Positions 1 to 49,273 of a DNA stretch of 64,000 nt are shown here, piece by piece. The stretch comes from Bacteroidales bacterium (lineage in GTDB: Bacteria; Bacteroidota; Bacteroidia; Bacteroidales; UBA3663). The position numbers and the translations under genes were made by a program. Under the pieces are notes generated by a model. The model saw nothing but the letters and a program-made list of their open reading frames with translations, had not been told where the DNA came from and did no database searches. The stretch is taken from the NCBI GenBank assembly GCA_045600445.1, contig JAZRXZ010000021.1, positions 42,577 to 106,576 of the forward strand. Direction: 5' to 3'. How positions within the stretch are numbered: the first letter of the stretch is position 1; each line of letters begins with the position of its first letter.

Positions 1-1580
1 TAGAAATGTCCGTCAGTAACATTGTCGTGTTTTGTACCAATGCGATAAGCACGCTGCCAACTATTGCCAGCATAAGACAAAGTATTGCCATTCTGGTTAT
101 TTACGCCATAGTAGCCATCCGTACCACCTTCTTCTGTCCAGACTTCAGCACCGGAGCTATTGTAGTTTACAGCCTCCTGGTTGATACGAAGATATACGAT
201 GGTCTGGAAATTAGCATCAAGATCGAACTCAAATTTCTTATGATATGACAATCCATTGTCAAGAGTAATCTCAAAATCGATATTGTTGTTAACTGTAGCA
301 AACTGATCTTTTGTCTTATCTCCTAAATATTCATCATACATCACGGTTGTTGCGGCCGTATAGGTCGGACGGACAATAAGATCATATACAGGAACTTTAC
401 CATACACAGTACGAACATAACCAGACTTCTCGTTTGCTGTTTTAATCTTCTGTGTTTCTGTTCCAGTTGCTTTCCCATATTCTGTATTCCAGGCTGTTTT
501 TGCGGTAGTCCAAGGCTGCTTTGTCTCACTCTCATCATTAGCCGGGAAAATATATTGTTTCTCTGCAGTCTTATAGAACATAATGAAATGCTCCGCGTCC
601 ATCACAGTTCCTGAAGCATTTACACTTCCTCTTTCATCTACGAAATGTGGTATGGCTTTACGCGCTTCTGTCCATTGAGGAGTAAGCGTAGCATGACCAG
701 TTTCGTCAATTGCTTCTTTAACACCATTCAAAACTTTTACATTGCAGAAGCGAATAGAGCTGTCTGTAGCATCTTCCTTTATTATTGTTCCACTTCCATC
801 GTTAGAATAAGAATACCCCTTAATCTTGACTCCTGTCAGCTCTGGGTCAATAAGGACGTATGCAATAACACGTGCTAGACGATGTTTGAATGGCAATTTG
901 ATACGGCTGATAGTTGCATTGATGCCCCAGTTTGCTGGCATACCTAGGTAGTGCTCCAATAACGTATAGTTGGCATTTCCAGACGTTAACGATGACGGAT
1001 CTTTGCTTTGGTCTATATTTAGATCTTGAGCAGTACCCTCTGCTTTAGTAATGTCCGTTAATGATACATTGGAAGTTGTCCTCTGTGCATCCTGATCTGG
1101 GTTATAACGAATCTCTGTAGGGACATATACACCCTCAAAGTAATGATATCCGTTTCCTTGCCATTGTGCAGGGGTACCACCGGTTCGATAATTAAGCGAA
1201 TACTCGGCCAAGCCACTGTCTGACTTCTTAATATTACTTTCTGAATAATTGCTTCCGGCCTCAATTTGATTTAGTTTAAGTATAGCCACCTTAGGAGAAC
1301 CTCCACTTATGCGATAAGTCACATCCAATCCCTTGAATAATGGTTCAAGCAACCAATCAACGGTTTCTGCATCCCTCTTAGGTTCCTCACTGGCACGAGT
1401 CTGTACAGGTTCATCTGAATTGATGGTAAGAGCTTCAGTTTCTACACCACCAATGCAGATAACGTTCGAATTATCGACAGGCTCATCCTCCACTGCAACA
1501 ATATCAGTGCAGGAAGAAAAACCTCCCACAGCCGAAAGGATGCACAAGATGCTGAATATATAAACTTTAATAGGTTCCAT
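1..1580 (-). CDS. Fimbrillin-family (type V pilin-like) surface lipoprotein, partial (C-terminus beyond window edge)
   Basis: Absent from the ORF track because it has no in-window stop. Hand translation of the minus strand from ATG at 1580 gives MEPIKVYIFSILCILSAVGGFSSCTD (lipobox FSSC). It also gives a PVQTRA site and the fimbrillin-type motif IKLPFKHRLARVIAYV. The frame stays open for 526 codons to position 3. The start overlaps the upstream stop by 14 nt (1567-1580). Confidence 0.8.
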   Translation of the reverse strand, partial: MEPIKVYIFSILCILSAVGGFSSCTDIVAVEDEPVDNSNVICIGGVETEALTINSDEPVQTRASEEPKRDAETVDWLLEPLFKGLDVTYRISGGSPKVAILKLNQIEAGSNYSESNIKKSDSGLAEYSLNYRTGGTPAQWQGNGYHYFEGVYVPTEIRYNPDQDAQRTTSNVSLTDITKAEGTAQDLNIDQSKDPSSLTSGNANYTLLEHYLGMPANWGINATISRIKLPFKHRLARVIAYVLIDPELTGVKIKGYSYSNDGSGTIIKEDATDSSIRFCNVKVLNGVKEAIDETGHATLTPQWTEARKAIPHFVDERGSVNASGTVMDAEHFIMFYKTAEKQYIFPANDESETKQPWTTAKTAWNTEYGKATGTETQKIKTANEKSGYVRTVYGKVPVYDLIVRPTYTAATTVMYDEYLGDKTKDQFATVNNNIDFEITLDNGLSYHKKFEFDLDANFQTIVYLRINQEAVNYNSSGAEVWTEEGGTDGYYGVNNQNGNTLSYAGNSWQRAYRIGTKHDNVTDGHF

Positions 1581-4500
1581 AATTTGTATCTTCTAATGGG
1601 GCAATAGAATTCTTTCGGCCTATAATATCCTCTTCTTTCTTACCCGTCTGAATCTGACCTGCTGCATTAAGAGCCTGCCACCAATTACCTTGACATCTTA
1701 CCATTGCATTAGCTAGAGCTCCAACCGTTCCATAAACAGAATATCCGATAATACCACCCCATCTAGGATGTAGGTCTTCTTCGGTATTTGTCCATGACAG
1801 CCAGCTATTACAGTCAGAAATTTCAATTTCTGGATTTACCGAGTTTTTAATAGCAGCTCCGCCAACAATTCCGCCATAATAGATCGTACCGTTAGCTGAT
1901 GGTGTAATAGCATCTGCTCTGCCATGATAAGTACAACGACTGATTTTAGCAACAACAGCCGTGTTGACGATACCTCCCACGAAATAGCTTGCCTGACCTC
2001 CAGTAGTATTTGGCAAATCAATCTTTAGTTTAGCGTTACTCTCACAGTCTTCAATCGTAGCACCGCCATAAGCGTACACTACTAATCCACTCGGATTTGA
2101 AGCTTGCACAAACTTATCACTTGCCATTTTCACCTTAATACCAGAAAGCCTTCCTGACGAAACGGAATATGCTAAAGGAGCGATAGCATCTGTAAGGTCA
2201 GAGCTCTGTTCTGACTTAATATCGTTAAGGCAAACGATCGTGAGGTCATGGACATAGCTGACAATATTAGTGAATAGCATTGGAGCCTGAGATGTTCCAT
2301 CAAGATAAACAGCACAGTTGTTACCATCTAATTCACAGAATACATTACCGATACCGGAGGCTGAAAGTTCTTCCGATTGCTGACCAATTGGAACGGCTGT
2401 TTCGCCTTGTCCTATTTTCCAATTATCATAGTTGACTGTAAAATCATCAGACAAACGAGCTCGCCTTGACGTACTATTATAATTAGAAGTTGTAATCAGC
2501 TCTTTCAGTTCTTCTTCACTATCTAACACATAATCATATAGTGAAGAGCCTGTACGAGCATTTGTAAAATAATCAGTTTCTGTAAATGCATTAGTAACGG
2601 AAGTCGGCCACTGGTTGCCACTTACGTTAGCTGCATTATACAAATTGCCTTCTGTCTCGCCCTTAACAGAAATGATATTATTAAAAAAAGAAGGATTTTG
2701 CAAAAGCGTTATTCCATATTCAAAAGTATTATTGGTAATCTTACCTTCTGCTTTTCCTACAATTCCGCCACCATAGACATTCTCCCCACCAGACACACGA
2801 GCATTGACCGTACACATGTCAATGACCGGCATCGTTGTTGTTATGGCACTACCACCCGCTTCTCGAGGGAATAGTGAGGTTCCTGCTATACCTCCAATAT
2901 AATAATCAGAAGTCTGATCTCCTGCCGAAACAGGCATATTAGAAGTGCAGCGTAAGATATTACCCAAGTTAGCATTTACCAAACCTCCATGGGTTGCCTT
3001 GATCTGCGAGCCTTTGATATTTGCAACATTTATACGTTCAATAGAACCTGCATTTGTCGGTGCAATTGCACACTCTATGGAGTTAGTTGCATTTCTATTA
3101 CCAAACTCCAAGGTACCATTGACAATTGAGCCAGAAGAGGCAATTCCGCCAGGAAAGAGCGTATGATTAACCTTAAGTGTTGCACCTGCAAGGCTCAAAG
3201 TAGCTTTAAGTTCCTTGTCAGCGATTTGAGTTATTCCACCCCAATTATCAGGATAAGCATCTTCACTGCTGCCTTGAACCTCAAGATCAATTGAGGCCGG
3301 ACTGATAAACGCAATATTTCCTGGTTTATTCAACTCTTCAGAAGCCAAGAACTCTATCAAATCCTTACGGTTTTTGATACTAATTGGTTCACTTGCATGC
3401 CCATAGTCATCGCACTTAGTGATAAACGGCCAGTCTTCCCAATCCACAACGTATGCTGTGATCAGAATCTTTCGATCTCCGGTACTAAGCGTTACATCGA
3501 TGACTAGATGATCACCAGCATTAAGATTATATCGAGACTTGACATTAGCCAACAAAGACTCTTTCATAGTCTCATCTTCTTCTTTCAGATAAGTTCCATA
3601 TTCAGTATCGTTGGCTGCATAGAATGAGAACTTCTGATTAGACACCTCAATGGCAGCGATCTTATGTTCTGACGCATAATCAGCATAAGCATGAGGTTCT
3701 ACAATCGCATCATAACATGCAGTCATATAAGGGACTTCTACACCTCGATCTGTATATTTGATCTGTCTACCACTCAAAAGAGGGCTGACTTCAGTAGGAG
3801 TATTACCTTTGTAACTGAAGATCTTCATGTGTACCTTGTCACTGGCAGTTGTGATACCATTCTCTACATCATACTGCAACTGATCACGGTTGATACCCTC
3901 TCCTGCACGCAAGATGATACTGACACGAGCACGCTGGTGCTGCATATAAAGTGGAATGGTCTTGTAATAGTCTGTTGATAAACCTTGAGGTAAACCTAAA
4001 TCCTGGTTGGCTGCATACCACTGCTTTGCTGTCAGGTAGTTAGGTGCATCAAGCTCATACTTACTTTTTGAATTCTCGTCATCCCAAGCCTTCACATAAC
4101 CATAACCCTTGATATAATCCTCAGCGAAATAAAGCGCTGCAGTCGATTGGTCTGTGGCTACAGTAGCTCCTGATGCCGGCAGATGCGAGGTTGCCTCAAA
4201 CGCGTACGGAGTGTTATTGCTTAGCCAATAGAGTGGCGTAGCATTATCTGCAAGTTTCAGATATCCATTAGCATCAAACGAAAGTATATCATTCTCATCC
4301 ATTTCAGTAACAGGGACGAGGTCTGTCATACCTTCGACACTCGGTGTTCCAGCATTATCTGTCAGCATCTTCACATTAAATGTATAAAGATCACGGACGC
4401 TCTGAAACTTATCGATTAGAGTATTATATTCTTGTTCTGCAGATACGCGGGTTCTCTCTGGCTGAGGGACATGTGCAGAAAAAAGCACTTGTTCACCAGC

Positions 4501-4629
4501 AGAAATACCACTTTCCTCATGTTCTGGAACAAGAATTGTATCTGTGCATGATGAAGTAATAGCCATCATGGCCAGCCCAAACAATATATTATTATGTATA
4601 TTTCTGTTTATCATATTATGTAGTATCAC
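1567..4629 (-). CDS. Fimbrillin-like lipoprotein fused to a C-terminal GLUG-type repeat domain (candidate pilus tip adhesin)
   Basis: 1020-aa ORF with lipobox AITSSCTD and an ERTRV site. N-terminal module carries PLYMQHQRARVSIILRAGEG and ends ILITAYVVDWEDW. The C-terminal ~600 aa carry spaced G-G-I-x-G motifs resembling the GLUG motif: YYIGGIAGTS, VYGGGIVGKAEG, YFVGGIVNTA, YYGGIVGGAAI, RWGGIIGYSV. Confidence 0.75.
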   Translation of the reverse strand: MILHNMINRNIHNNILFGLAMMAITSSCTDTILVPEHEESGISAGEQVLFSAHVPQPERTRVSAEQEYNTLIDKFQSVRDLYTFNVKMLTDNAGTPSVEGMTDLVPVTEMDENDILSFDANGYLKLADNATPLYWLSNNTPYAFEATSHLPASGATVATDQSTAALYFAEDYIKGYGYVKAWDDENSKSKYELDAPNYLTAKQWYAANQDLGLPQGLSTDYYKTIPLYMQHQRARVSIILRAGEGINRDQLQYDVENGITTASDKVHMKIFSYKGNTPTEVSPLLSGRQIKYTDRGVEVPYMTACYDAIVEPHAYADYASEHKIAAIEVSNQKFSFYAANDTEYGTYLKEEDETMKESLLANVKSRYNLNAGDHLVIDVTLSTGDRKILITAYVVDWEDWPFITKCDDYGHASEPISIKNRKDLIEFLASEELNKPGNIAFISPASIDLEVQGSSEDAYPDNWGGITQIADKELKATLSLAGATLKVNHTLFPGGIASSGSIVNGTLEFGNRNATNSIECAIAPTNAGSIERINVANIKGSQIKATHGGLVNANLGNILRCTSNMPVSAGDQTSDYYIGGIAGTSLFPREAGGSAITTTMPVIDMCTVNARVSGGENVYGGGIVGKAEGKITNNTFEYGITLLQNPSFFNNIISVKGETEGNLYNAANVSGNQWPTSVTNAFTETDYFTNARTGSSLYDYVLDSEEELKELITTSNYNSTSRRARLSDDFTVNYDNWKIGQGETAVPIGQQSEELSASGIGNVFCELDGNNCAVYLDGTSQAPMLFTNIVSYVHDLTIVCLNDIKSEQSSDLTDAIAPLAYSVSSGRLSGIKVKMASDKFVQASNPSGLVVYAYGGATIEDCESNAKLKIDLPNTTGGQASYFVGGIVNTAVVAKISRCTYHGRADAITPSANGTIYYGGIVGGAAIKNSVNPEIEISDCNSWLSWTNTEEDLHPRWGGIIGYSVYGTVGALANAMVRCQGNWWQALNAAGQIQTGKKEEDIIGRKNSIAPLEDTNYGTY

Positions 4630-4633
4630 CTAC

Positions 4634-6448
4634 TTATTCGCTGATTGTTCCATCCTCAAGGTAATTCAAGTCTTCAGAGAGCCCCCATCCTTGAATAGAT
4701 ACTCGTATTGAAGCCAGCATACCACGTGCAAGCCTGATATCATACAGATATCGTTTGCCACTCTGGAGTGTCTTCAGATCATGACTATGCTCATCGGTCG
4801 TGATTGGGAAAATCACAGAGTGAACAATTCGCTTTGATGGATCAGTCTCTCCATCAGGCAAAGGCTCTTTCCATGTTATACGTAAAGCCTGTAACAATCC
4901 GTAAGCAATAGCATTAAATGACTTTAATGAAGTTGTTGGCTTCTCTGTATCCGACATCTCGAACATGTTGAAAGATGTTTTATAAGGGTTCTCTGCCAAT
5001 TGTGCAGCTGTAAGCTTACTAACATCAACATTATCAAAGGCAGGAGCAATGGCCACACCACTTTGATTTGGCAGTGTAAATACATAACCCTTTTCGGTTA
5101 CACCCAAAAGCTCTACACTCTCTATACTCTCAGCCGTCAGATCATCGGTATTACCCTCCACCTTCTGTACATTCACCTGAATCTGTGAGAACTGATGCTT
5201 GAAGTACAGTCGCACACGGTTAGCCTCCTGTGTAGCACCTGTTGGCTTCATTTTTTCCACAGCAAGAATTGGATCTGGCTGATCGGACATCTTTGTCATT
5301 CCTTCTTTTCTAGTTAGATCGAAAGTATTGGCAGGATGCTCTTCAAAGATTTCTTCTATATCCTTCTTCTCGTAACTGAAATAGACTGTAGTTGACGGAT
5401 CTGAGAGGTCAATTCTCTCTCCACGATGTCCTTTAGAAGAATCCTCATAACCAATATTTTTCGTGTAGTCGAAGGCTACAGTCCAACATGAGTTATGGAA
5501 TGTACCATTCACAGTAGCTTCGTCTTCAGTAGGAGCTGTTCGTTCCAAATCAGCTTTCAATGCGCTCTTTTTATCATCAGCCAAATTAGATGCATCAATG
5601 GCGTTTGCAATATCATTTTTAGCATTTGCAAGCCAGGTTGCAAATTCTTCGGTATGACCAGCATTATTAAAAACAAGATGATTATGAGACCAATTAACCG
5701 GACTTTGGTTTTCTTTCACCTCAGTCAAAGTCCACGAAGCAGGTTCCTCCTCATTGTTACGAATAAATGCAAACACCGTTGCCTTCTGTGGCTGCCAAAC
5801 CACATTTTCACCCGTCTTAACCTTTCGCACGCCATCAGCCTCAGGATACATAAACAATGATCCTTGAGCAGGAACAGTTACATTGTTCTTTGTTGTAGTT
5901 GAATACTCGATTGTTTTCAGCTTATTATAATCAGTATATGCTACAAAGACATGTGGCAGACGGTTCTTCCAGTAGAAAGGCTCTACTCGAGGATCGAAAC
6001 CGTAAGTCGTGTAAGTTTCCTCGTCTAGATCATCGCTAGACAGATCTGTATAATCCCACTTCCAATAAACAGAGTTACCCAATGACTCGGTACCGGTAGC
6101 GCCAGGTTTATGCACATCGAAAACCTTCAAATAAGACGTAGCTCGAGAGTTCTCGTCCTCTACATCGAACGTAGATTCGTCTGTAGCACCCGCATTACCA
6201 TGATAATACATAGTACAGACAAAACGACCTCCAGTTTCCATATAAGGAATGACATCTGCACGTGTCGTACCAGAGACGGCTCCTACATTACCAGCTGAGA
6301 ACAGCACCATCTGGCCGATACCTTGATCATTGGTGTTACCACCTCCAGAAACTGAAGGTTCTGCCAATTCATCAGTACAAGACAAAGTCATCAATGCCGT
6401 CAGCAAATAACAGGCGCTTTTGATTATATGTATAAATCGCTGATTCAA
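4634..6448 (-). CDS. Fimbrillin-family surface lipoprotein
   Basis: 604-aa ORF with lipobox LMTLSCTDE and a GTTRAD site. It has the motif LYFKHQFSQIQVNVQK and the C-terminal strand motif SIRVSIQGWGL. There is a 4-bp gap to the downstream gene. Confidence 0.7.
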   Translation of the reverse strand: MNQRFIHIIKSACYLLTALMTLSCTDELAEPSVSGGGNTNDQGIGQMVLFSAGNVGAVSGTTRADVIPYMETGGRFVCTMYYHGNAGATDESTFDVEDENSRATSYLKVFDVHKPGATGTESLGNSVYWKWDYTDLSSDDLDEETYTTYGFDPRVEPFYWKNRLPHVFVAYTDYNKLKTIEYSTTTKNNVTVPAQGSLFMYPEADGVRKVKTGENVVWQPQKATVFAFIRNNEEEPASWTLTEVKENQSPVNWSHNHLVFNNAGHTEEFATWLANAKNDIANAIDASNLADDKKSALKADLERTAPTEDEATVNGTFHNSCWTVAFDYTKNIGYEDSSKGHRGERIDLSDPSTTVYFSYEKKDIEEIFEEHPANTFDLTRKEGMTKMSDQPDPILAVEKMKPTGATQEANRVRLYFKHQFSQIQVNVQKVEGNTDDLTAESIESVELLGVTEKGYVFTLPNQSGVAIAPAFDNVDVSKLTAAQLAENPYKTSFNMFEMSDTEKPTTSLKSFNAIAYGLLQALRITWKEPLPDGETDPSKRIVHSVIFPITTDEHSHDLKTLQSGKRYLYDIRLARGMLASIRVSIQGWGLSEDLNYLEDGTISE

Positions 6449-6498
6449 AATACTAATTCTTAATCATTAATCTATAAACGCTAGTCACGAAATAGAAG

Positions 6499-8901
6499 TT
6501 AGTCCCAGTCAAGGGTCGCATTGCCACTACCGGTCTTCTCCTCCCAAGCCTTAATCATAGCACGGAAAGAGATGGTTTCCTTACTCAAAAAAATCGTATA
6601 AATGTAATGCTTTCCTTGTTCCCATTGATTCAAATCGCTTGTTATTGGATCTCCATTTGAATCTGTGGTCTGGTACTCACATTTATTCAATTGAGCCTTA
6701 TAGGTAGCACCATTCCTAAGTGTTATAGTGATAATTGCATCATCATAGATTGTCTGAGGCACCATGACGTAATCTTTGAGAAGATTGACAGGTTTTCCAG
6801 ATTCCGGCGTAATACAATCTCCCAAAGAAGTGTCATTGCCGTTGCTCTTGGCGGGCAAGAAACCTGTATCATTTGTTGCATAAACAAATACTTTACTTGC
6901 CTTACTTCCTGTAACTTCAACTTTACCATTTTCAATAGTGATAGTACCAGTCGTGAACAAGTTCGAAATCTGGATCTTAGCCTGACTTAAGTCTAATCTT
7001 GGATTGAGCGGGTGATTATAAAGCGTCAAGTATTCATAATCATCCCACCCATCTACTGTAGCGTCCTTATTAATATCCTCCAGATTAAACGTCACCTTGC
7101 TCATGATGTGCTGGAAAGCCAGAGGCACACCACCCTTACGAGGAGGGATGGCAGCTCCGATCTCGTATACACGCTCATCGGTTTCTGATTTACCAATATG
7201 GCGAGGAGTATTTGCCCAAATGACATCATGACCATCTGCAATCGTTCCTTGAGATACAGAAGCTGGTTTATAATTATACGAATTGATTGCTCCAACACTT
7301 TCGGTATCAAACTCATTGGTTACAGTTTTACCTTTGTATATAGCCAGAGCACGGAAATAGTAATTATCCGTCTGGTTTGGCCAGTAGATTGGAGGTGTAT
7401 TCGTCCATTGGTCTTCTGAAGGGGCAGTATTGTTAGAGAAAGAACATACAGTTGAATAAGCATACTTCTCATTAGTACGCTCTTCTGAGTCATCAGTGTC
7501 ATTAGACTTCTTTACAGAGAACAAACTAAAAGCTGCACCAGTCTTGAACTTATCCTTATCAACAGTCTTAACTAAAATTTCTTCACCACTCTCAACGTTT
7601 TCGTCCGAGATATAATATTCGTCTTTGCCATTTGGCAAATCAATCTCACCCACAGCTTCTGCATTAACATCATCCCAGTTACGGATACTGGCTCTAACAT
7701 CAGTCGCCTGCTTCTTGATAGTCACTGTGATATGATAATTAACACCAGGAATGGTCATGCCACCATTACTTTCGTTATATCCAGAAGATACTAAATCTGG
7801 AGTAACCGAAGAAGCATTATAAGCAGCAAGTTTTGTACTCCACGCATCTGACTTCGTTTCTAAAGGCTCACCTTCCTTGGCATCAATGATAGCATCTGTC
7901 AGGAATACCTTATAATTATTATCATCAATGTTAGTCAGCGTGAGGAACGGATTATCTAGATCTGCCTTAAATACAGTTGGTGCAATCACAGCTTCAAACA
8001 CACACTGACGGTTATTGTTTGTAATAGCACCTTTCTTAAATATCACTTCCTTCTCATCGTCAGAGTTTGTACTAGGTGTAACTGTAGCTGTAGGTGCGGA
8101 AACGTTACATTTTGTAACCGCACTACTCAGCTTAACGACAGCATTTGCGAAGTTTCCACTCACGTTATCAAGAAAGCCATCTGCGCATATTACCGTGATA
8201 GTCACTTTACTCATAGCATGAGTATAAGGGATTTCGAGGTGACCTCTATCTGCCAGCGTATGCTTATACGCTACTGGAGACTGAGTCTTTGCAAAAAGCA
8301 GGTCGCTGGTCTTAAAAGCATTTGCAGCACCCTGATCAGCTAAAACAGTCCAATTACTTAGCAGTCCAGATGGTTCTGTGAGGGTAATAGGAGATTCAAT
8401 AGTTCTGCCATTATATCCATAACCATAATAAACCATTAAAGCGTGATTTGCAGTACGGAGGTCTGTTGTCTCAGATGCTGAATTGCTAAAATCATCCCAA
8501 TAAAGCCCTTGTGAATCTGTTACCGTCAAAGTAGAAGACGAATTATGATTGGTATAATTATCTGCTTCATTCAAATAACCATCTTTCAACACAGAAACCT
8601 TGAAATTTACCAAACGAGGTCCGACTCCTGTACCTGTTACATCTGCACTCCATACCAATGGATTAGTGGTAGCATCAGTAACAGTAACATGCTTGATATA
8701 AGCATTCAAAAGTTCGTCAGTAGTAAATTTATCGTCTGTAGCACGAGTCACAGAAGTCTCTGTCTTAAGCTTCATGTTTATCGCAATCGGAGTCTTCTCC
8801 ACCCCATTCAGGAATAAAGAAGTATCCACCACGTCATCTGTACATGATGTCAAGGCTGCTACACCTATAATACTATATATAAATTTCTTTATCATTGTCA
8901 T
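6499..8901 (-). CDS. Double-module fimbrillin-family surface lipoprotein
   Basis: 800-aa ORF with lipobox AALTSCTDD and an SVTRAT site. It has two H-x-M-S-K motifs (IPYTHAMSKVTITV, LAFQHIMSKVTFNL). It has two module-end W motifs (VRASIRNWDDV, FRAMIKAWEEK) and DNYYFRAL between the modules. Confidence 0.8.
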   Translation of the reverse strand: MTMIKKFIYSIIGVAALTSCTDDVVDTSLFLNGVEKTPIAINMKLKTETSVTRATDDKFTTDELLNAYIKHVTVTDATTNPLVWSADVTGTGVGPRLVNFKVSVLKDGYLNEADNYTNHNSSSTLTVTDSQGLYWDDFSNSASETTDLRTANHALMVYYGYGYNGRTIESPITLTEPSGLLSNWTVLADQGAANAFKTSDLLFAKTQSPVAYKHTLADRGHLEIPYTHAMSKVTITVICADGFLDNVSGNFANAVVKLSSAVTKCNVSAPTATVTPSTNSDDEKEVIFKKGAITNNNRQCVFEAVIAPTVFKADLDNPFLTLTNIDDNNYKVFLTDAIIDAKEGEPLETKSDAWSTKLAAYNASSVTPDLVSSGYNESNGGMTIPGVNYHITVTIKKQATDVRASIRNWDDVNAEAVGEIDLPNGKDEYYISDENVESGEEILVKTVDKDKFKTGAAFSLFSVKKSNDTDDSEERTNEKYAYSTVCSFSNNTAPSEDQWTNTPPIYWPNQTDNYYFRALAIYKGKTVTNEFDTESVGAINSYNYKPASVSQGTIADGHDVIWANTPRHIGKSETDERVYEIGAAIPPRKGGVPLAFQHIMSKVTFNLEDINKDATVDGWDDYEYLTLYNHPLNPRLDLSQAKIQISNLFTTGTITIENGKVEVTGSKASKVFVYATNDTGFLPAKSNGNDTSLGDCITPESGKPVNLLKDYVMVPQTIYDDAIITITLRNGATYKAQLNKCEYQTTDSNGDPITSDLNQWEQGKHYIYTIFLSKETISFRAMIKAWEEKTGSGNATLDWD

Positions 8902-8914
8902 CTTCAGTTAGATG

Positions 8915-13501: not shown

Positions 13502-13589
13502 CGTATATATGTTTGTTTTATGATTTAATGACTTTCGTCAATTTTTGATCGATTATTTCAACGTCGCGTACACGATGTCAGTATTCTTG

Positions 13590-13822: not shown

Positions 13823-13832
13823 TCAGATTAGC

Positions 13833-16244: not shown

Positions 16245-16279
16245 ATTTTGTTTTTTTATTATCGAGATAGAATTGTCTG

Positions 16280-17512
16280 TTACTTTTCGAGGTCGGTGCT
16301 CAACGAGCCAGAGATGTCTTGCCATGGCTGGAGCACGCAGGTGAAGTGGATCGGACGAGGATCGAAACGCTTCAGAACGATATAATAGGTGTAGATGGTG
16401 TTCGGCTCCCAAGTGAACTGTGTGGTGGTTGTGTTGTCTGGGAGAACGAGAACTATGTGCTCGTCATGATAAGTGACGTCACCGATCTTGAGCGATACGG
16501 TCATCTCTACATTCTGCTGTGGCATCTGAAGCAATCCGTCTGGCACTTCACACATATAAGCCTTGGCCTGCGAGGTGCACTGGTTGATCTGACGCTTCAC
16601 GTCGGGAGTAGTAGATCCGATGGCAGCAGTGAGAAGTGTCACGCCAGCGTCGGTGGTAGTCTTCGGTCCAAAGGCTCCGTCCATCATGCTGCCGGTGGTA
16701 AGGCCGGTGGCTTCATAGCCTTTGGCATCGGTGACGAAACCGCTGGAGATTACCTTGACCGTGACATCGCTGATAATTCTTCCGTCAGAGATGCTGGCTG
16801 CATCGTCATCGTCGCAATAAATACCAAAGCGCACTTTAGAGGTGAGATGGTGGAATGGCAGAGCGACAGAGCGGTTGAGCGTAGCGCTCGAAGTGTTGAT
16901 CTGCACAGGATTGCCGTCTGCATCATTGATGACATGGTCGAGGTCCTTGCCTGCTCCATCGCGTGAAACCTGTGCTACGAGATATGGCTCGGCCTGGGGT
17001 GTTGGCATAGACAACGTGCCTTCAGCGGCCGTCTGATAGCTGTAAGTCACCGTCTGTGGGATGGTGAGTTTCTGACCATCGAGCGTGAAGTTAGCAATGT
17101 CAGTATGTGCAGGACAGGGTGAGATGGCATGGAAACGATAAGGGAAATTATTGAAGTCCCAGTATCGCTCAATCTGCCTCTGGTAGAAAGATTCTGGCTC
17201 ACCGATGTAGCACCACTCTGAGGTACCATACCAATCGTTTTGCTTATACTGAACTTCATATTTGCCCATCACATCCTGTTGTTTGCTGCCAGCAAAAGCC
17301 TTCCAGCATGAGACGAGGAATCCCTGATTGAGGGCGCTGCCAGCACGGGTGCCAGCCTGCTCGCTCACATTATAGGAGGTGAAGCGCATCAGTTCGTTGC
17401 TCTCTGGTACAGAAGCCTCAGGCTCTTCGACAACTGAGTCAGAAGAGCAGGCAGATGCCAGCAGCGCAACGGACAGAAGCCAGGGAGATATTTCAGGACG
17501 AGAAAATGCCAT
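16280..17512 (-). CDS. Fimbrillin-family surface lipoprotein (single module)
   Basis: 410-aa ORF with lipobox LLASACSSD and an AGTRAG site. It has the motif LPFHHLTSKVRFGIY and the C-terminal strand FTCVLQPWQDI. It is visibly more GC-rich than the genes to its left. Confidence 0.75.
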   Translation of the reverse strand: MAFSRPEISPWLLSVALLASACSSDSVVEEPEASVPESNELMRFTSYNVSEQAGTRAGSALNQGFLVSCWKAFAGSKQQDVMGKYEVQYKQNDWYGTSEWCYIGEPESFYQRQIERYWDFNNFPYRFHAISPCPAHTDIANFTLDGQKLTIPQTVTYSYQTAAEGTLSMPTPQAEPYLVAQVSRDGAGKDLDHVINDADGNPVQINTSSATLNRSVALPFHHLTSKVRFGIYCDDDDAASISDGRIISDVTVKVISSGFVTDAKGYEATGLTTGSMMDGAFGPKTTTDAGVTLLTAAIGSTTPDVKRQINQCTSQAKAYMCEVPDGLLQMPQQNVEMTVSLKIGDVTYHDEHIVLVLPDNTTTTQFTWEPNTIYTYYIVLKRFDPRPIHFTCVLQPWQDISGSLSTDLEK

Positions 17513-17529: not shown

Positions 17530-19005
17530 TTAATTGATGTTGTGGTCAGAATCCTTGGTGACGTAATCTTCGATGGTACAATCATCAAAGACAATAGGAT
17601 AAACCGTGTTGATAGGGCCAGGGGTAGGATCGGTAGGATCGATCTGGTCAGAAGGACTGGTAGAACCCGATGAGTTACGTGTGATCAAGAAGGTGTAGAT
17701 GTAACGGGTATTGTCGGCCCACGTAGTATATTCAGCAGGTACGAAGACGGTGGCGTTGTGTACGGTAATGACCTCCTGATTATCTTCAGCGATGATGCGA
17801 TAGGTAACGTGGAAGGTGAAACCTGTCTTCTGTGCAGCAGGCTGAGCCACTGGATAATAGATGGTTGGAGACCAGCTGTATGTCTGATCGGCACCGGTGG
17901 CTACCTTCTCTGGCATGGTCTTGTGAACGGTGTTTTCAAGACCGACATAGTCAGTGACGTTAGCACTCAAGGCTGCTGGAACGTTGACGGTAGGATAAGT
18001 GGCGTCAGCGGCAGGGATGGCAAACATCAGGTTCTCCTGGGTGCTGGTGGCACCATCGGTAGTACCAGCGAATGAGGCCTTGGCATCGGCATCGAAGCTG
18101 ATGACTGCACCCGATGAGGTGTAGTAGCTGGCCTTGGTGAAGGTGGCAGCGGCAGACATCTCGGCAGGTGTAGCCTGAACACCCTTCTGCTGGTCAGCCG
18201 ATGAACTGGTGGCCATGGTGCCCTCGTCGGCCGAAAGATCGAGCAACTCTACCTTATAGCCAGGAATATCCTCGTAGAAACGGATGAACATCTGTGCACC
18301 CATGTGCTTGAATGGCACGGTGATGTCGGCCAACGAAGCGTTGGTGGCCTTGACACCGGCATACATAAACTCGGAGAGCGAAGCATCGGTGCCAGCACCA
18401 GTGTAAGTACTGTTGACCGGGTTGTCGTAATGATCTTTGACGGTAGTGCCCTCGAAGGTCATCACTGCGGTACCGTCGACACCCAATGCACAGCTTACAC
18501 CGCTGGCACGGTATGGGGTGTAACAGAAGAAGTTAGTATTGGTAAACGCGAGGTCCCAGTAACGAAGGTACTGGCTCTCGTTGCCCGACATATACTCGGT
18601 CTGACTGGCGGTGTAATATCCGTCAGTGCCACTGTAAGTGTACTGCGACTTGCCCAGGCCTTCGTAGAACCAAGGTGAGGTATGATCGTCTGTCGTACCT
18701 GCGTCTCCAGCCCATGTGGAGCCATTGCTATGCTCGTAGCCGACGTTGTTGCCGCCAAAGCCTACGAGATAGTTTTCCATGACGGTCTGTGCGAGAGTAC
18801 CCGTCGCAACCTTGCTGGCCCAGACGCCGAAGTTATAGTGATAGTTATCCTGCAGGCTATTAGATGCACGAGTCACATTCTGACGGAGGGTGTTGAAGGA
18901 GATAGGTACCTGAGTTTCTGGAGCCTTCTCAACGTTGACGATGTCGTCAGAACTACAACTTGCAAGCAATGCAGCAGAAGCTGCTATAGCGAGAATTCTT
19001 TTCAT
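17530..19005 (-). CDS. Mfa1/FimA-like candidate major (stalk) pilin, paralog 2
   Basis: 491-aa ORF with lipobox LLASCSSDD and an NVTRAS site. It has VPFKHMGAQMFIRFYEDIPGYKVELLDL. Its C-terminal block GFTFHVTYRI..ATVFVP..GSTSPSDQIDPTDPT..YPIVFDD is shared with the adjacent 441-aa paralog. Confidence 0.7.
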   Translation of the reverse strand: MKRILAIAASAALLASCSSDDIVNVEKAPETQVPISFNTLRQNVTRASNSLQDNYHYNFGVWASKVATGTLAQTVMENYLVGFGGNNVGYEHSNGSTWAGDAGTTDDHTSPWFYEGLGKSQYTYSGTDGYYTASQTEYMSGNESQYLRYWDLAFTNTNFFCYTPYRASGVSCALGVDGTAVMTFEGTTVKDHYDNPVNSTYTGAGTDASLSEFMYAGVKATNASLADITVPFKHMGAQMFIRFYEDIPGYKVELLDLSADEGTMATSSSADQQKGVQATPAEMSAAATFTKASYYTSSGAVISFDADAKASFAGTTDGATSTQENLMFAIPAADATYPTVNVPAALSANVTDYVGLENTVHKTMPEKVATGADQTYSWSPTIYYPVAQPAAQKTGFTFHVTYRIIAEDNQEVITVHNATVFVPAEYTTWADNTRYIYTFLITRNSSGSTSPSDQIDPTDPTPGPINTVYPIVFDDCTIEDYVTKDSDHNIN

Positions 19006-19042: not shown

Positions 19043-20368
19043 TTAATTTTTCGAACCCTGATTGATCTCGTATTCTGACTCCTCGAGAGTCCAGTCATCG
19101 ACCTTAGCGGCATCGAACACAATTGGATAGAGTGCATTCTCCGGATCGACGGTCGGATCGGCAGGATCAATGGTGTCGTCTTTATCTGGATCAGTAGAAC
19201 CGCTGGTGTTCTTCGTGATCTTGAAGATATAAGTGTAGGCGTGGTTAGCCTGCCAGTTGCAATGATCGCTCGGCACGAAGACCGTAGCGTTCTTGACGGT
19301 GATCGTCTCGCCCGTGGTTGAGGTCAAGACGAAAGATACGTGGAAGGTGAATCCGGTATCATTGTTCTTAGGGATGGCGTAATAGGTGGTAGGCGATGCA
19401 GAGGCGGTCTCTCTGGTGATGCCAATAGCCTCTTCGACGGGTTCCTTGAAGACCAATGGACGTGTGTTGGTCTCCTTGATGGCCGACACATGAGCGATCT
19501 GCGGGTTGCTGACAGAAGTAGAGAAATCAATGTTGACACCTGTCTGGCTGTAATACTCTCCTGGTGTGTACTTGCCTTCGTTTTCGATAGCAGGAGTTGC
19601 CTGCACATCGTCATACTTGCCAGGGAGGAGGTCGATCATCCGGATAGAATAGCCCTCAATCTCCTCATAGAACTTGATGTTGACCTTGGCATTGAGACGA
19701 CGGAACAGCAACCAGACGTCTTTGCCATAATCGTCCTTAGCTACAGTGGTAGCTGCATACATGTATTCACAAGCCGTAGGCTGGTCGTAACCATCGGTCA
19801 ACGAACCGCCAGGCAATGAGAGTAACTTGGACTGATTGTCAAAGGTGGCAGTGCCGGAACCATTGACGTAAGGCGCATAAGCGTAGAAGGTAGTGGTGGG
19901 AGCCTCTAAGTCCCAGTATCGCAATACCTGATTCGCATGATTGGACATCATAGTCGTCTCTGTGGCCAGGACGTAACCTTCTGAACCTACATAAGTATAA
20001 TCGGCCGAGCCAAGATGCTCATAGGCCCAGAATGACTTGCCATCGACAATCTCCTCCCAATCCCCCAGAGTGGTCTGAGCGTCGGGCGTCATGTAATAGC
20101 CGCGATGTTTGGCAGAATCATTATAACCCACCAGATAATTCTCTATGACCGGATGAGTGTCATCAGTGCTCTTATAGCCAAAGACGCCGAAGTTAAGATG
20201 ACCGTATTCCTGTAGCTTTGTAGCACGTGTGATGTTGCTTTTTGCAGCGCTAAAACTGATTGTCTTCTGACGCAAGGTAAGCTCGGGACCCGTGGTCTCG
20301 ACAAGGCTATCCTGCACGCAGCTACTTAAGAGCAGCAGAAAAGACAGATAAGAAATACGCTTTTTCAT
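19043..20368 (-). CDS. Mfa1/FimA-like candidate major (stalk) pilin, paralog 1
   Basis: 441-aa ORF with lipobox LLSSCVQD and NITRAT (R48, 31 residues after the Cys). It has LLFRRLNAKVNIKFYEEIEGYSIRMIDL. Its C-terminal block is GFTFHVSFVL..ATVFVP..GSTDPDKDDTIDPADPT..YPIVFDA. Confidence 0.7.
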   Translation of the reverse strand: MKKRISYLSFLLLLSSCVQDSLVETTGPELTLRQKTISFSAAKSNITRATKLQEYGHLNFGVFGYKSTDDTHPVIENYLVGYNDSAKHRGYYMTPDAQTTLGDWEEIVDGKSFWAYEHLGSADYTYVGSEGYVLATETTMMSNHANQVLRYWDLEAPTTTFYAYAPYVNGSGTATFDNQSKLLSLPGGSLTDGYDQPTACEYMYAATTVAKDDYGKDVWLLFRRLNAKVNIKFYEEIEGYSIRMIDLLPGKYDDVQATPAIENEGKYTPGEYYSQTGVNIDFSTSVSNPQIAHVSAIKETNTRPLVFKEPVEEAIGITRETASASPTTYYAIPKNNDTGFTFHVSFVLTSTTGETITVKNATVFVPSDHCNWQANHAYTYIFKITKNTSGSTDPDKDDTIDPADPTVDPENALYPIVFDAAKVDDWTLEESEYEINQGSKN

Positions 20369-20411
20369 ATTCTTAATATTTGTTTTTAGCTTCTTTGACT
20401 AGGAGACTGAA

Positions 20412-21605
20412 TCAGTATCCAATCGGAATCTCGTAAATCACCTCATCATAGTCTTCGACCGTTGGGACGAAGAGCGAACCTGTACCTTCTTCGACCGGGA
20501 TATCTGGCATCTCTATTTCACTGCAGTCAATAACTACGGTGATGATGCCACCGTGCGCCTGTTTGTGGCACTGGTCGGTGACGTCGAAGGTATAAGTCTT
20601 CTCTGTGCCATTACGGAAACTGAGATCGACCATCAACTGATTGATCAAATCTGTGCGAGAACCATTGTACTGATGACTTGGCGCGTCAGAATAAGAAGCC
20701 ATGTCGCACATACCGAAGGTAGTAAGCATACTGCCGATGATGTCTGCAGGCTTTCCTTCATAGTTCATACCCGTCTTATATCGAGTATTGAAATAAACCA
20801 TGGCAGGATTCATGCCAGTATGACCTGTGTTGACATCCACACTGCTGGCCACTGACGAGAGGGCTGCATTACCAGAAGTACCGGTGACACGACCATCATT
20901 ATTTACGAGAATGACCTGCACGAGGTAGATATAAACCAATGGATTGAGCTCACAGTCGATATGCTTGACCCAGCACTTCTCCTCTTCATCGTAATAGTCA
21001 TAATCTTCCATGCGACGAGAGATATAGATATCACGTGGATAGGTAGAGTAGAAGATTTCTGGCTGGTTGAAGAGCGCGATGATAGCACGACTTGCATCTT
21101 CATCCTTCTTACCACGCGAGAATCCTCGGGTGACGGTGGTAGAAGCCTGGACTGAAAGCGGATCGGACTCGTCGATGGTCAATACCTGCGAGCCGTCTTC
21201 ACTATCGATATTACTCCAGATCAGAAGATCGTAATAGCCGAACTGATAAGAGCGACGGAAACGGTTTCCGAAGATGGTAAAACCATCATAGCTGACAGGT
21301 CTTCCTCCTGGTTGATCACCAAGATAGTGTCGGCGCACCTCAAAGTTGGTTGGCTGAGGATAGGTGATCTTACCGAAAAGCTCCTCGTCTTTTTGGTCCC
21401 AACTGTAATACCAACGATGTTCCCAATCGATATCGAGGTTCCAGACGACTTCAATATCGGTAATGATGGCAGGGACATCGACCAAAACCTCTTCTGCCGG
21501 CAACTTCAGCGGTGGCTCAATGCACGACTGGAAAGTGAAGAGTGAAGAGCAAAGGGCGAAAAGGGCCATCAGGAGATGGGTGGCTTTAAGTATCATCTTT
21601 TTCAT
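20412..21605 (-). CDS. Lipoprotein, candidate pilus anchor or assembly subunit (Mfa2/FimB-like or DUF5119-like; family unresolved)
   Basis: 397-aa ORF with lipobox TFQSCIEPP. It lacks the early T-R-A site seen in all ten downstream lipoproteins. It lies second in the operon, and its start overlaps the upstream stop by 4 nt (21602-21605). Confidence 0.5.
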   Translation of the reverse strand: MKKMILKATHLLMALFALCSSLFTFQSCIEPPLKLPAEEVLVDVPAIITDIEVVWNLDIDWEHRWYYSWDQKDEELFGKITYPQPTNFEVRRHYLGDQPGGRPVSYDGFTIFGNRFRRSYQFGYYDLLIWSNIDSEDGSQVLTIDESDPLSVQASTTVTRGFSRGKKDEDASRAIIALFNQPEIFYSTYPRDIYISRRMEDYDYYDEEEKCWVKHIDCELNPLVYIYLVQVILVNNDGRVTGTSGNAALSSVASSVDVNTGHTGMNPAMVYFNTRYKTGMNYEGKPADIIGSMLTTFGMCDMASYSDAPSHQYNGSRTDLINQLMVDLSFRNGTEKTYTFDVTDQCHKQAHGGIITVVIDCSEIEMPDIPVEEGTGSLFVPTVEDYDEVIYEIPIGY

Positions 21606-23083
21606 CGTGCATCTCCTTTCTTTGCTGACTTGTTACGACGATAGAGGATATCGTAGGTGATCTGGATACCCAGGTTGGTAGGGCCGAACCAGACGAACTG
21701 ATGGTTGCGCTCCTTGAAGTTTGAGGCTGAACCGAGGTAATCATAGTAATAATCGCCATCGATCTCTCCTGAGAGCGGATTGCCATAGACGTATGGATCG
21801 TAGCGTGTGATATAAGCTCCTACGGCGGCCATGAACTCAAGGCGCCAGTTGCCGCGCTTGCTGATCGGCATCACATATCCGACAGAGAGGCCTGCACCTC
21901 CACCCTCACCTTGCCAGCCTTTGGTCTTGCTCAGGCCGATGCCGTATTTGCCGCCTTGTGCATAAAGACCAGCATAAGCGCCGAGGAATTCGCCTCCTCC
22001 ACGGAAGTAGCGACGGAGCTCGAGCTGAATGTCGCGCCACTGCCAGAACTTCTGCTGGCTCCACTTGCGGTTAGTACCCCAGGTGATGCCGGCATTGTAG
22101 GTATAATGTCCATCAAGCGGATAATATTCGAGCTGGAGGTTTGGCGAGTAGGCCATACCGAATTGTGGCATGTAGAAGAAGTCGTGCAGCAAGTTGGTGC
22201 GAAGAGCCATGAGATGGCGACGCTCCTGTGGCTGCGGCTGCTGAGGCACCTCAACTGGAGTCTGTACCTGGATGACCGGAGCTTCGATAATTATAGAATC
22301 CGGCTTCTCAATCTTCTCGATTTCGACATTGCTGACCGAGACACTCTCAAAGACTGGAGCCGGACGTGACAGCCAGAGGACAATACGTGCAGTACGAAGT
22401 TCTGGGAAATACTGCTGCTTGAGGCGCGACCATAAACGACCACCATCGAGGCGGCTGAGCTGCAACTTGCATGTCTGTTCGTCACCATTACAAGCATCAA
22501 AGATCTGCTTGACACGAGCATAGTCAACATCATTGCGCTGCTGCATCAGAGTGATGAGGTAAGCATAATCTTCGGTAACACTTTGCACATCCATCTTGAT
22601 CTCCTGTTGAGCGAAAGGTCCACCAGAGAGATCGGTCTTGATGAGAGATTGCAGGGCTTCGGTACGACCCTGTCCTAAGCGACGGTTATTTTCATACGAT
22701 CCCTCTGGCGATGCAGCGCCACGAAGGAAGAGCTGACGGAGCTGGTAGCCTTCACGCTGAAGGAAAGGTAACAGTTCACGATAGGTACGGAAGAAATCGG
22801 AATTGGTATTGATCTCGGTGCGATTGACCTGGAAACGGACACCGACAGCCAAGGCGTTGAAGAGCGAGTCTGTCATCACAGGAGCCTCATCAACATTGTA
22901 ATCAGAAACGATAACGAAAGGATACTCTGCCATGACGGAGTAGCGCTCAGTATCGAGCAAACGCTCAATCTCAGTCATTGAGGATGACAGAACAGCCGCA
23001 CGACATAGTCCTATGGAGAAGACCCATAGGAGAATCGACAAAAACAGGTGCTGTGCGGTTTTCATAAAGATACGATTAAACAA
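21602..23083 (-). CDS. Outer-membrane protein: OmpA-C-like/DUF3868-like module plus C-terminal DUF3575-like beta-barrel
   Basis: 493-aa ORF with a type I signal peptide. The N-terminal half has GAASPEGSYENNRRLGQGRTEAL. The C-terminal half (ALRTNLLHDFFYMP..NLQLEYY..ELRRYF..GAYAGLY..GLSVGYVMPIS..WRLEF) matches my memory of DUF3575 proteins that head Bacteroidales fimbrial operons. Confidence 0.65.
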   Translation of the reverse strand: MFNRIFMKTAQHLFLSILLWVFSIGLCRAAVLSSSMTEIERLLDTERYSVMAEYPFVIVSDYNVDEAPVMTDSLFNALAVGVRFQVNRTEINTNSDFFRTYRELLPFLQREGYQLRQLFLRGAASPEGSYENNRRLGQGRTEALQSLIKTDLSGGPFAQQEIKMDVQSVTEDYAYLITLMQQRNDVDYARVKQIFDACNGDEQTCKLQLSRLDGGRLWSRLKQQYFPELRTARIVLWLSRPAPVFESVSVSNVEIEKIEKPDSIIIEAPVIQVQTPVEVPQQPQPQERRHLMALRTNLLHDFFYMPQFGMAYSPNLQLEYYPLDGHYTYNAGITWGTNRKWSQQKFWQWRDIQLELRRYFRGGGEFLGAYAGLYAQGGKYGIGLSKTKGWQGEGGGAGLSVGYVMPISKRGNWRLEFMAAVGAYITRYDPYVYGNPLSGEIDGDYYYDYLGSASNFKERNHQFVWFGPTNLGIQITYDILYRRNKSAKKGDAR

Positions 23084-49262: not shown

Positions 49263-49273
49263 TTAAGGAAGAA

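Follow-up and report, generated by a model that had tools for sequence, protein, structure and literature searches.

The window analysed here, a stretch of 64,000 nt of Bacteroidales DNA, holds at positions 1–23083 a single co-directional block of genes on the minus strand behind a Bacteroides-type promoter (Table 1). Its reading frames and spacing match the original prediction. The block begins with a DUF3575 protein (G1) and a lipoprotein that lacks a predicted site (G2), which are followed by ten further lipoproteins (G3–G12). Intergenic distances range from −14 to 50 bp, the sole exception being the 331 bp between G6 and G7 (13502–13832). The true start of G6 is MKKYIY, rather than that of an 859-aa ORF beginning with TTG, and the start codon of G11 is uncertain (GTG at 4629, ATG at 4614, or 4569, the start used for the NCBI product).

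Table 1 Features of the operon and its upstream border; a slash marks the predicted cleavage position.
Feature	Coordinates	Strand	Length (aa)	Lipobox Cys	Predicted site	Remarks
WecA-like GT4 gene	23268-24599					Polysaccharide locus upstream of operon
Terminator-like hairpin and T-run	23153-23180	minus				Closes upstream polysaccharide locus
Bacteroides-type promoter	23109-23140	minus				−33 TTTG, 20 nt, −7 TAAATTTG
Second promoter match	23081-23112	minus				Overlaps first; motif scan
G1	21602-23083	minus				Likely start ATG 23065
G2	20412-21605	minus
G3	19043-20368	minus	441	Cys17	NITR48/A
G4	17530-19005	minus	491	Cys17	NVTR46/A
G5	16280-17512	minus	410	Cys22	AGTR56/A
G6	13833-16244	minus	803	Cys20	ASTR52/A
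Repeat array	13591-13757	minus				A 42-bp repeat able to form a hairpin, four copies in tandem; TRF
G7	11108-13501	minus	797	Cys22	ILTR63/A
G8	8915-11080	minus	721	Cys21	VETR57/A
G9	6499-8901	minus	800	Cys20	SVTR53/A
G10	4634-6448	minus	604	Cys24	GTTR63/A
G11	1567-4629	minus		Cys28	ERTR61/V
G12	3-1580	minus	at least 526	Cys24	VQTR62/A	Runs off window

Matches to the Bacteroides-type promoter motif number three in the 64 kb, two of them just upstream of G1, and three TAnnTTTG boxes cluster 5′ of the same gene. Scans for the promoter and the −7 box found no second Bacteroides-type promoter motif within the operon; the G6/G7 gap contains no TAnnTTTG (−7) box, and a −7-like box lies 23 nt ahead of G8. 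A scan for sigma-70 promoters and terminators gave counts at or below shuffle expectation, and no weight was placed on it. The idea of an invertible promoter was rejected, since the scan showed just short, local hairpins and no inverted repeats on either side of 23109–23140; the neighbour genes include no recombinase. At its distal end, the operon probably extends beyond the left end of the window. Exact-product look-ups of G9, of G11 with two starts and of product P0001 gave no match, and close relatives (loci L042–L044) were used in place of the continuation of the source contig; in three relatives the operon runs on for three genes beyond G12, which brings the lipoproteins with a site to 13, and judging from relatives the full operon would span ~34 kb, against at least 23 kb within the window.

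An SpII lipobox is present in all ten of G3–G12 (that of G6, APSC, was judged by eye) and is kept in their orthologues, with acidic residues directly after the Cys in most of the pilin-like subunits. All ten also carry the T-R-(A/V) site that had been read from the sequence (NITRAT, NVTRAS, AGTRAG, ASTRAG, ILTRAV, VETRAV, SVTRAT, GTTRAD, ERTRVS and VQTRAS), the Arg lying 31, 29, 34, 32, 41, 36, 33, 39, 33 and 38 residues from the Cys in G3 to G12, respectively. Judged from sequence, this spacing of 29–41 residues is FimA/Mfa1-like, FimA having Cys19/Arg46 and Mfa1 Cys20/Arg49 (PMC13655056). The site is set beyond chance by its near-invariance as TRA among 37 G6 homologues and by its co-variation within genomes, where one type (TRA, TKA, SRA or KRA) is used across all subunits. 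Five loci have Lys at every aligned site (L007, L009, L010, L031 and L032), five are of the Ser-Arg type (L022, L023, L028, L029 and L043) and one is of the Lys-Arg type (L025). The K-type loci are spread over at least three separate clades, and 0 of 10,000 within-orthogroup shuffles matched the concerted switch. K-type genomes include JAKSJP01, JAZRWK01, JAKSJT01, CAMODD01 and ONKO01. Such concerted switching within genomes argues for one shared processing protease, and the R/K and T/S switches lend strong indirect support to the predicted T-R-(A/V) site as a processing site. In the AlphaFold2 models of G6 and G11, the site falls in a low-pLDDT loop right after the first strand.

The prediction that the ten lipoproteins are type V pilins stands for nine of them, by Pfam, profile–profile comparison or predicted fold. 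Pfam Mfa_like_1 (PF13149) matches G3 and G5–G10, with E-values of 5e-8 for G3 and 1e-7 for G10, and G4, a paralogue of G3, is 34% identical to it (hhalign probability 100%). In hhalign, G5 reaches probabilities of 99.5% against G3 and 95–97% against G6–G9, G10 reaches 88–95% against G6–G8, and the resulting profile network connects G3 through G11. G6 contains two Mfa_like_1 stretches, with an internal duplication at E 1.4e-12. G6–G9 are tandem double-pilin modules. The structural check proposed with the prediction was run on G6 and G11, and the best Foldseek matches in the PDB were type V pilins at probability 1.0; matches to the two models include 4k4k, 3sy6, Mfa3 (5nf4), FimA (6jzk) and Mfa2 (5nfi). 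The AlphaFold2 model of G6 (pLDDT 80) leaves the R52 loop and the C-terminal tail (786–803) disordered. Two transthyretin-like β-sandwich domains are indicated by model in G6 and G11, by Pfam in G3 and G5–G10, and by homology in G4. NCBIfam gave no match for G1–G10, and searches of the PDB with the single sequences of G3, G8 and G2 and with the family profiles of G6 and G2 were empty, so that neither route found a relative of G2.

G11 fuses a pilin module (~residues 1–400) to a ~600-aa β-helix with GGIVG-type repeats. It aligns with G6–G9 at hhalign probabilities of 91–98.6%. Its AlphaFold2 model has a pLDDT of 83.6, and the linker at 379–408 is disordered; Foldseek matches the N-terminal part to type V pilins and the C-terminal part to the IgA1-protease β-helix (6xjb, 7uvk and 3n6z). 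G11 is a candidate tip adhesin. G12, which measures 815–937 aa in relatives, has a putative pilin module that ends near a nearly invariant W481, with a further domain after it. Its shared N-terminal architecture, a shared H-x-[LM]-[AS]-[KR]-[IV] strand motif (hhalign probability 85.6% against G5) and its site co-variation weakly support a pilin identity; it has no significant pilin match. Of the ten that had looked competent for polymerisation, G3–G10 have C-termini that consist of a conserved strand, a W (Y in G4) and a tail of 10–15 residues. In G11 and G12, this strand and W motif are internal and large domains follow the pilin module, a tip-like arrangement, so that not all ten look like strand donors. 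A ~940-aa protein after G12 in relatives has a lipobox and site, and no pilin module was detected in it. Pfam returned nothing for G11, G12 or the ~940-aa protein of L042. Two or more tip-type subunits are ill-suited to a single linear fibre.

G1 is, as had been called, a DUF3575 outer-membrane protein (Pfam PF12099, E 5e-15, 55.6 bits against a cutoff of 21.1). The DUF3575 C-terminal β-barrel comprises residues 292–477 and is preceded by a region of ~290 aa; Pfam found no match in the N-terminal 284 aa. The G1 stop and G2 start overlap by 4 nt, an arrangement that recurs in 26 of 33 loci. G2 had been proposed as an uncleaved anchor, and the part of this claim that stood is a lipobox without a processing site: G2 has the lipobox FQSC with Cys28, and the alignment of orthologues has an invariant IEPPLxLP after the Cys and contains no R/K motif that co-varies with the pilin sites, the first Arg of G2 lying 36 residues past the Cys in a context different from that of the T-R-A/V site. 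A Pfam search does not place G2 in the Mfa2/FimB family (PF08842), so the term anchor is only a guess. Its DUF5119 match is below threshold (E 2e-5; 24.9 bits where 27 are required), and DUF5119 is matched by 18 of 27 orthologues; hhalign detects no profile similarity to G3–G12. We regard G2 as a candidate base or anchor component.

The repeat array inside the G6/G7 gap has an RNA fold z of −5.1. Arrays with the same 42-bp period and another sequence occupy the same position in L001 and L013 (TRF) and in L019, L035 and L041 (by eye), and Rfam has no match for the array or elsewhere in the window. The array is a candidate intra-operon attenuator or RNA-stability element. The structured 331-bp gap might divide two transcripts.

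A syntenic comparison, which the prediction had suggested, finds the G1–G12 order kept in 41 species-level genomes of different families; Prevotellaceae, Muribaculaceae, Cryptobacteroides and other MAGs have this order with an orthogroup of its own at each position. The locus had been thought unusual, and in size it is, being larger than described operons; it is not a one-off but a member of a conserved family. The conserved core comprises ~8 pilin orthogroups, and the carriers number dozens of species from the rumen and from the guts of horses and humans. The source genome itself is absent from the GTDB representatives, among which the best match is at 49% identity. In a close relative, G7–G9 are ~36% identical to their counterparts here, against 82–88% for G10–G12, and only the last ~110 nt of G9, its C-terminal tail, lie in the block that aligns with L042 (~78% DNA identity there). 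From these alignments, G7–G9 look to have been exchanged as cassettes. Lineage-specific duplications affect G3/G4, G6/G6 and G6/G7. GC3 is 0.54–0.59 in G1–G5 versus 0.30–0.36 in G6–G12, the low-GC3 part starting at G6. A fusion of two operons as the ancestral cause of this break was rejected: since the full order is conserved across families, the arrangement is ancestral, and the break reflects allele replacement rather than fusion.

In the reading that we favour, with a probability of about 0.6, the block belongs to an expanded and conserved family of operons and codes for a multi-subunit, type V pilus-like fibre on the cell surface. Whereas pilin identity, the conservation and co-variation of the site and the synteny are shown by the analysis, we infer that the subunits are cut and polymerise, in which order they stand, and what G1, G2 and the repeat array do. 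The pilin-like subunits would pass through Sec export and lipidation at the lipobox Cys to the cell surface, where one common surface protease would cut after the conserved Arg, in the loop behind the N-terminal anchor strand. This cut would open a groove, which the next subunit would fill with its C-terminal donor strand, as in FimA/Mfa1. Because they end in the C-terminal motif of a W and a short tail, G3–G10 could both accept and donate strands and would serve as stalk or adaptors, with G6–G9 bringing two pilin modules per subunit into the fibre. G11 and G12 would most likely be distal, ligand-binding subunits, and the base next to the membrane would most likely consist of the G1 barrel and the translationally coupled, uncleaved G2. 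Distal genes would probably be expressed at a lower level owing to the hairpin-repeat array that follows G6.

The same proteins might instead be non-polymerising surface lipoproteins with a pilin fold, adhesins or binding proteins, which a common protease activates or sheds off the lipid anchor, so that they end up in the medium or on vesicles; the operon would then encode monomers or small complexes that are regulated together. Concerted site switching shows shared processing, not polymerisation, and several subunits have extra, probably ligand-binding, domains. The fimbrillin-family fold also occurs in non-pilus contexts of B. thetaiotaomicron, such as iron-regulated loci (PMC10434189), and for some Bacteroides fimbrillin loci no visible fimbriae were found (PMC12632263). 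We nonetheless consider this reading unlikely, given that G3–G10 keep a donor-strand-like C-terminal strand and tail (disordered in the G6 model), that the tail of G9 is conserved along with G10–G12 although the G9 body has been replaced, and that gene order is fixed over a large evolutionary distance, which suggests physical partners.

It is also conceivable, if quite improbable, that at least two pilus systems, or alternative stalks and tips, lie end to end, here with G1–G5 native and G6–G12 horizontally acquired. Mixed pili would result, combinatorial or antigenically variable, with only some of the subunits in each fibre. The sharp GC3 drop, the structured gap after G6, the divergence of G7–G9 beside well-conserved G10–G12, the single-lineage duplications and the presence of at least two tip-like subunits all fit such an arrangement. 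Set against them are the recurrence of the whole G1-to-G12 order across families, which makes it ancestral, the single G1/G2 pair per locus and the scans that found no second promoter motif.

Within the favoured reading of a type V pilus-like fibre, a more specific form can be put forward as a speculation with the odds against it. It would be an ordered heteropolymer of 8–13 different subunits, four of them double pilins, its sequence fixed by pairwise donor-strand/groove matching, on an outer-membrane base of the DUF3575 barrel and the DUF5119-like lipoprotein, with the exposed middle subunits swapped between species as cassettes and the junction strands fixed. If this is true, no dedicated platform for assembling or anchoring type V pili would have been known before this base. 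A conserved operon with 8–13 different cleavable pilins, including double pilins and a pilin–adhesin fusion, would stretch the picture of anchor, stalk and tip. In the dominant gut phylum the main adhesive fibres are type V pili, and to our knowledge only the P. gingivalis Fim and Mfa pili are understood. The R-to-K and T-to-S switches provide a computational handle on the cognate maturation protease, via the protease repertoires of K-type versus R-type genomes, and also mark which lipoproteins of a genome share a processing pathway. The locus is testable, as it occurs in Prevotella sp. MA2016 and in the cultured Xylanibacter ruminicola strains KHT3 and D31d.

As predicted, the operon exceeds those described, with ten site-bearing subunits against ~2–6 genes per known operon. 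There are five genes in fim and five in mfa (PMC8512630), the P. vulgatus locus (BVU2678–2683) has six genes behind an invertible promoter (PMC12940148), and the 22 operons of B. fragilis 638R total 93 genes, or ~4 per operon (bioRxiv 10.1101/2024.11.15.621889). In contrast to the P. vulgatus locus, the scan here found neither inverted repeats beside the promoter nor a recombinase. Features in common with the P. gingivalis Fim and Mfa systems are lipoprotein precursors with an Arg site (~27–30 residues after the Cys in P. gingivalis), two β-sandwich pilin domains and, putatively, C-terminal donor strands and an uncleaved base subunit (PMC13655056, PMC8512630, PMC9409006). Fim and Mfa have 3–4 site-bearing subunits, whereas the window encodes 10 and close relatives 13, and four of the subunits here are tandem double pilins. 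In place of an Mfa2/FimB-family anchor, the operon opens with the DUF3575 barrel and the DUF5119-like lipoprotein. Sequence identity to the Fim and Mfa proteins is undetectable, and the carriers are Bacteroidales of the rumen and hindgut, which are not expected to have gingipains.

Among solved structures, the pilin modules of G6 and G11 most resemble the type V pilins of gut Bacteroides, with which they share Mfa_like_1. Structures of such pilins, reportedly published by Xu et al. in 2016 (Cell 165:690), include 4k4k for BACUNI_00621, 3sy6 for BF1861 and 3ufi for BACOVA_04980. Chaperone-usher fibrillae are unrelated in fold and assembly chemistry, with donor-strand exchange rather than protease-mediated strand exchange, and the operon encodes neither chaperone nor usher. 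In pap, a hairpin within the operon after the major-subunit gene sets stoichiometry. By analogy only, the P pilus (PapA-K-E-F-G-H) illustrates how several different subunits could line up in a fixed order when donor strands and grooves are matched.

Twelve co-directional ORFs fill window 1–23083 on the minus strand, running from G1, the first transcribed, to G12, which runs off the window. The spacers between them measure, in order, −4, 43, 37, 17, 35, 331, 27, 13, 50, 4 and −14 bp. The spacing is as originally described for a block behind a promoter at ~23110: one 331-bp gap and otherwise tiny gaps or overlaps. Just three Bacteroides-type promoter matches occur within the 64-kb window, two of them before G1. 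Three −7 boxes cluster at the G1 promoter, and a further one precedes G8 by 23 nt; none was found in the 331-bp G6/G7 gap. The 4-nt overlap of G1 and G2 is shared by 26 of 33 loci. G6 does not overlap G5, because its true start is MKKYIY at 16244, inside an 859-aa TTG ORF (13833–16412).

Positions of features in the window (strand as noted) and sizes of the proteins encoded after G11 in related contigs
Feature	Position	Size	Remark
Terminator-like hairpin of preceding gene	23153–23180		upstream of G1
Bacteroides-type promoter match TTTG-N-TAnnTTTG	23109–23140		between hairpin and G1
Second Bacteroides-type promoter match	23081–23112		overlapping the first
Hairpin-forming 42-bp units, G6/G7 gap	13591–13757	four copies
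42-bp-period hairpin array, polysaccharide locus	48057–48249	4.6 copies	between AraC-type HTH gene and epimerase gene
Large ORF, polysaccharide locus	24612–26492	626 aa	minus
Large ORF, polysaccharide locus	26489–28201	570 aa	minus
First gene after G11, L042–L044: G12		815–937 aa
Second gene after G11, L042–L044		~940–953 aa
Third gene after G11, L042–L044: Mfa_like_1 protein		~375–387 aa
Fourth gene after G11, L042–L044: Mfa_like_1 protein		~776–806 aa	clipped by contig end in L042

An SpII lipobox and an early T-R-(A/V) site, with a predicted protease cut after the Arg, had been proposed for ten lipoproteins, and both are confirmed in all of G3–G12. The Cys-to-Arg distance is 29–41 residues; the earlier counts of 31 and 41 were correct and belong to G3 and G7. 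The reference positions are Cys19/Arg46 in FimA and Cys20/Arg49 in Mfa1 (PMC13655056). G2, the 397-aa lipoprotein described as lacking the site, indeed has a lipobox and no T-R-(A/V). Among the proteins of the collection searched, 703 are homologues of the G6 family, most of them without a name or annotated as 'fimbrillin family protein'; TRA is almost invariant in 37 of them.

G1 is the DUF3575-like protein expected at the operon head (Pfam E 5e-15), and G2 matches DUF5119 below threshold (2e-5), a family matched by 18 of 27 orthologues. Fimbrillin-type identity by HMM search held for G3 and G5–G10, which match the pilin family Mfa_like_1 (in two stretches each in G6–G9), and not for G4, G11 and G12, which had no Pfam match. 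G4 is 34% identical to G3. G6–G9 are mutual paralogues (24–28% identity) whose two halves are homologous to each other (hhalign probability 97.7%, E 1.4e-12); judged from their sequences, they are tandem double pilins. Profile–profile comparison linked G3, G4 and G5 (probability ≥98.9%), G5 with G6–G9 (95–97%), G10 with G6–G8 (88–95%) and G11 with G6–G9 (94–98.6%). G12 reached at best only 85.6%, against G5, over a strand with a shared motif (FKHRLARVIAYV in G12; FNHALSRMTI, FTHAMSKITV and MQHQRARVSI in other pilins). Neither G1 nor G2 showed similarity to the pilins in these comparisons.

Structural likeness to type V pilins was borne out in the predicted models of G6 and of the G11 pilin module. 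The G6 model (pLDDT 80.3; first strand 42–46, disordered tail 786–803) places R52 in a low-confidence loop (49–53). Its best PDB match is the type V pilin 4k4k (E 6e-12, TM 0.65), with further type V pilin matches to 3sy6, 3ufi, Mfa3 5nf4, FimA 6jzk, Mfa2 5nfi and Mfa4 5dhm. The G11 model (pLDDT 83.6), whose site is likewise predicted in a low-confidence loop (52–60), consists of a pilin module, a disordered linker (379–408) carrying the 'module end' motif ILITAYVVDWEDW, and lastly a ~600-residue beta-helix. In Foldseek the first part matches pilins 4k4k and 4h40 and the second the IgA1-protease beta-helix (6xjb, 7uvk, 3n6z). The pilin-like part of G12 ends near an almost invariant W481, with ~300–450 residues more in relatives. 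Because these extra domains follow the pilin or pilin-like module, G11 and G12 look like tip-type pilins, which a review describes as pilins with added domains (PMC12632263). The NCBI G11 product P0121 (1000 aa) begins MMAITSSC, which puts just 7 residues ahead of the lipobox Cys, fewer than a signal peptide needs. The start in the deposited record is therefore probably wrong, and ATG 4614 or GTG 4629 appears more plausible (G11, window 1567–4629).

A scan of species-representative genomes yielded 41 loci, carried by Bacteroidales of the rumen and of the horse and human gut, among them Xylanibacter ruminicola KHT3, Ga6B6 and D31d, Prevotella sp. MA2016, and MAGs of Prevotellaceae, Muribaculaceae, Cand. 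Cryptobacteroides and Parabacteroides. In these syntenic loci, the ORFs matched to G1–G12 follow one conserved order, G1-G2-(G3 and/or G4)-G5-G6-(G7)-G8-G9-G10-G11-G12, with a core of ~8 pilin orthogroups and extra copies in the window's lineage. In three Logan contigs with closer G11 relatives (L042, 85% identity; L044, 68%; L043, 48%) the operon runs on past G11, and in L044 it ends after the fourth further gene. Lipobox and site are present in all four proteins, so that the complete operon of this lineage probably comprises 15 genes, 13 of them site-bearing, and we infer the same for the window's own genome. Four loci (L006, L012, L016, L021) have an extra ~4.1–4.3 kb lipoprotein gene between the G8 and G9 orthologues; its product (1369–1416 aa in L006, L012 and L021) has a lipobox, but neither a processing motif nor a match to any of G1–G12 was detected. 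Similar-sized ORFs occur in L002 (1297 aa) and L018 (1195 aa). In L043, where the operon is otherwise intact, an inserted DUF1016/YhcG-type (nuclease-like) gene (4277–5338) separates two double-pilin genes.

N-termini were aligned orthogroup by orthogroup, and the residues below T-R-A of the window were compared. In most genomes all subunits have T-R-A/V/S/T, in five all have T-K (L007, L009, L010, L031, L032; 5–8 sites each) and in five all have S-R (L022, L023, L028, L029, L043); L002 is mostly K, L025 K-R and L030 mostly Q/S-R. The 260 aligned sites comprise 216 R and 44 K, with five all-K loci and only three mixed. Within-orthogroup shuffles gave five all-K loci in 0/10,000 and a mean of 27 mixed loci, a comparison that ignores phylogeny; the safer argument comes from the G1 and G2 trees, where K-type loci fall into three or more separate clades, nested among R-type loci. 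In these alignments the site behaves like one recognised by a single shared protease: a specificity change in such an enzyme would predict parallel substitution of one position in 5–13 paralogues per genome. The processing enzyme is Rgp in P. gingivalis (PMC13655056); for gut Bacteroidales, a surface clostripain has been named (PMC12632263).

GC3 is 0.54–0.59 in G1–G5 versus 0.30–0.36 in G6–G12, with an abrupt break at the G5/G6 junction (window 16244/16280), and several relatives have low-GC G6 or G3 islands (L012, L013, L018, L033, L036). Between the window and L042, protein identity is 82–88% for G10–G12 and only 35–38% for G7–G9. At the DNA level, 1–5743 aligns at 87% and 5755–6609 at 78%, followed by short patches only (8778–9020, 13038–13118, 13430–13510), two of them at gene starts. 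The C-terminal tail of G9 (FRAMIKAWEEKTGSGNATLDWD) is nearly unchanged and the G9 body is replaced. This suggests that exposed middle subunits are exchanged as cassettes by allele replacement while the junction strands are retained; the donor strand of G9 may, for instance, be matched to the groove of G10.

RNA of the G6/G7 gap, which contains the 42-bp array, is predicted to fold far more stably than shuffled sequences (z = −5.1). This gap exceeds 200 bp in 8 of 23 related loci, the window not counted. TRF detected 42-bp-period arrays of unrelated sequence in the same gap of L001 and L013, and those of L019, L035 and L041 show the same array type by eye. Rfam searches returned no family for the 42-bp arrays. 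Period and position are kept while sequence is not, which points to a role of RNA or DNA structure; most likely, if speculatively, the array would act as a partial terminator or a processing/stability element setting the proximal:distal subunit ratio. The L013 gap holds three different 42-bp arrays in succession, and the 721-bp gap of L041 an unrelated short ORF-like insert.

The block is best explained as encoding a type V pilus system in expanded form, a reading to which we assign a probability of about 0.6. The lipoboxes and sites of G3–G12 could instead mark processed surface lipoproteins that do not polymerise, which we regard as unlikely, and the genes might encode several or alternative fibres end to end, which seems slightly less probable still. 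Within incomplete literature coverage, we found no description of this operon family, of DUF3575 function or of double pilins. The interest of the proposed pilus system rests mainly on operon size and conservation, concerted cleavage-site switching and cultured carriers.

Upstream, a large Wzx/Wzy-type locus for polysaccharide biosynthesis and export adjoins the operon on the same minus strand (23268–~47000 and 48231–63853). It encodes a WecA-like GT4, a Wzc-like GNVR+AAA protein, a Wza-like protein, GT1 and GT2 glycosyltransferases, Wzy, an acyltransferase, LicD, MatE-type flippases and WecG. Between 30 and 46 kb the locus is GC-poor (0.34–0.40). Two large ORFs lie between the Wzc-like and WecA-like genes; for one, the sole Pfam match is a weak one to DUF4114, and the second has none. 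The second 42-bp-period array, in this locus, is unrelated in sequence to that of the G6/G7 gap. No inverted repeats flank the promoter of the window's operon. In P. vulgatus, EPS and fimbrial loci are also adjacent, and both are phase-variable (PMC12940148).
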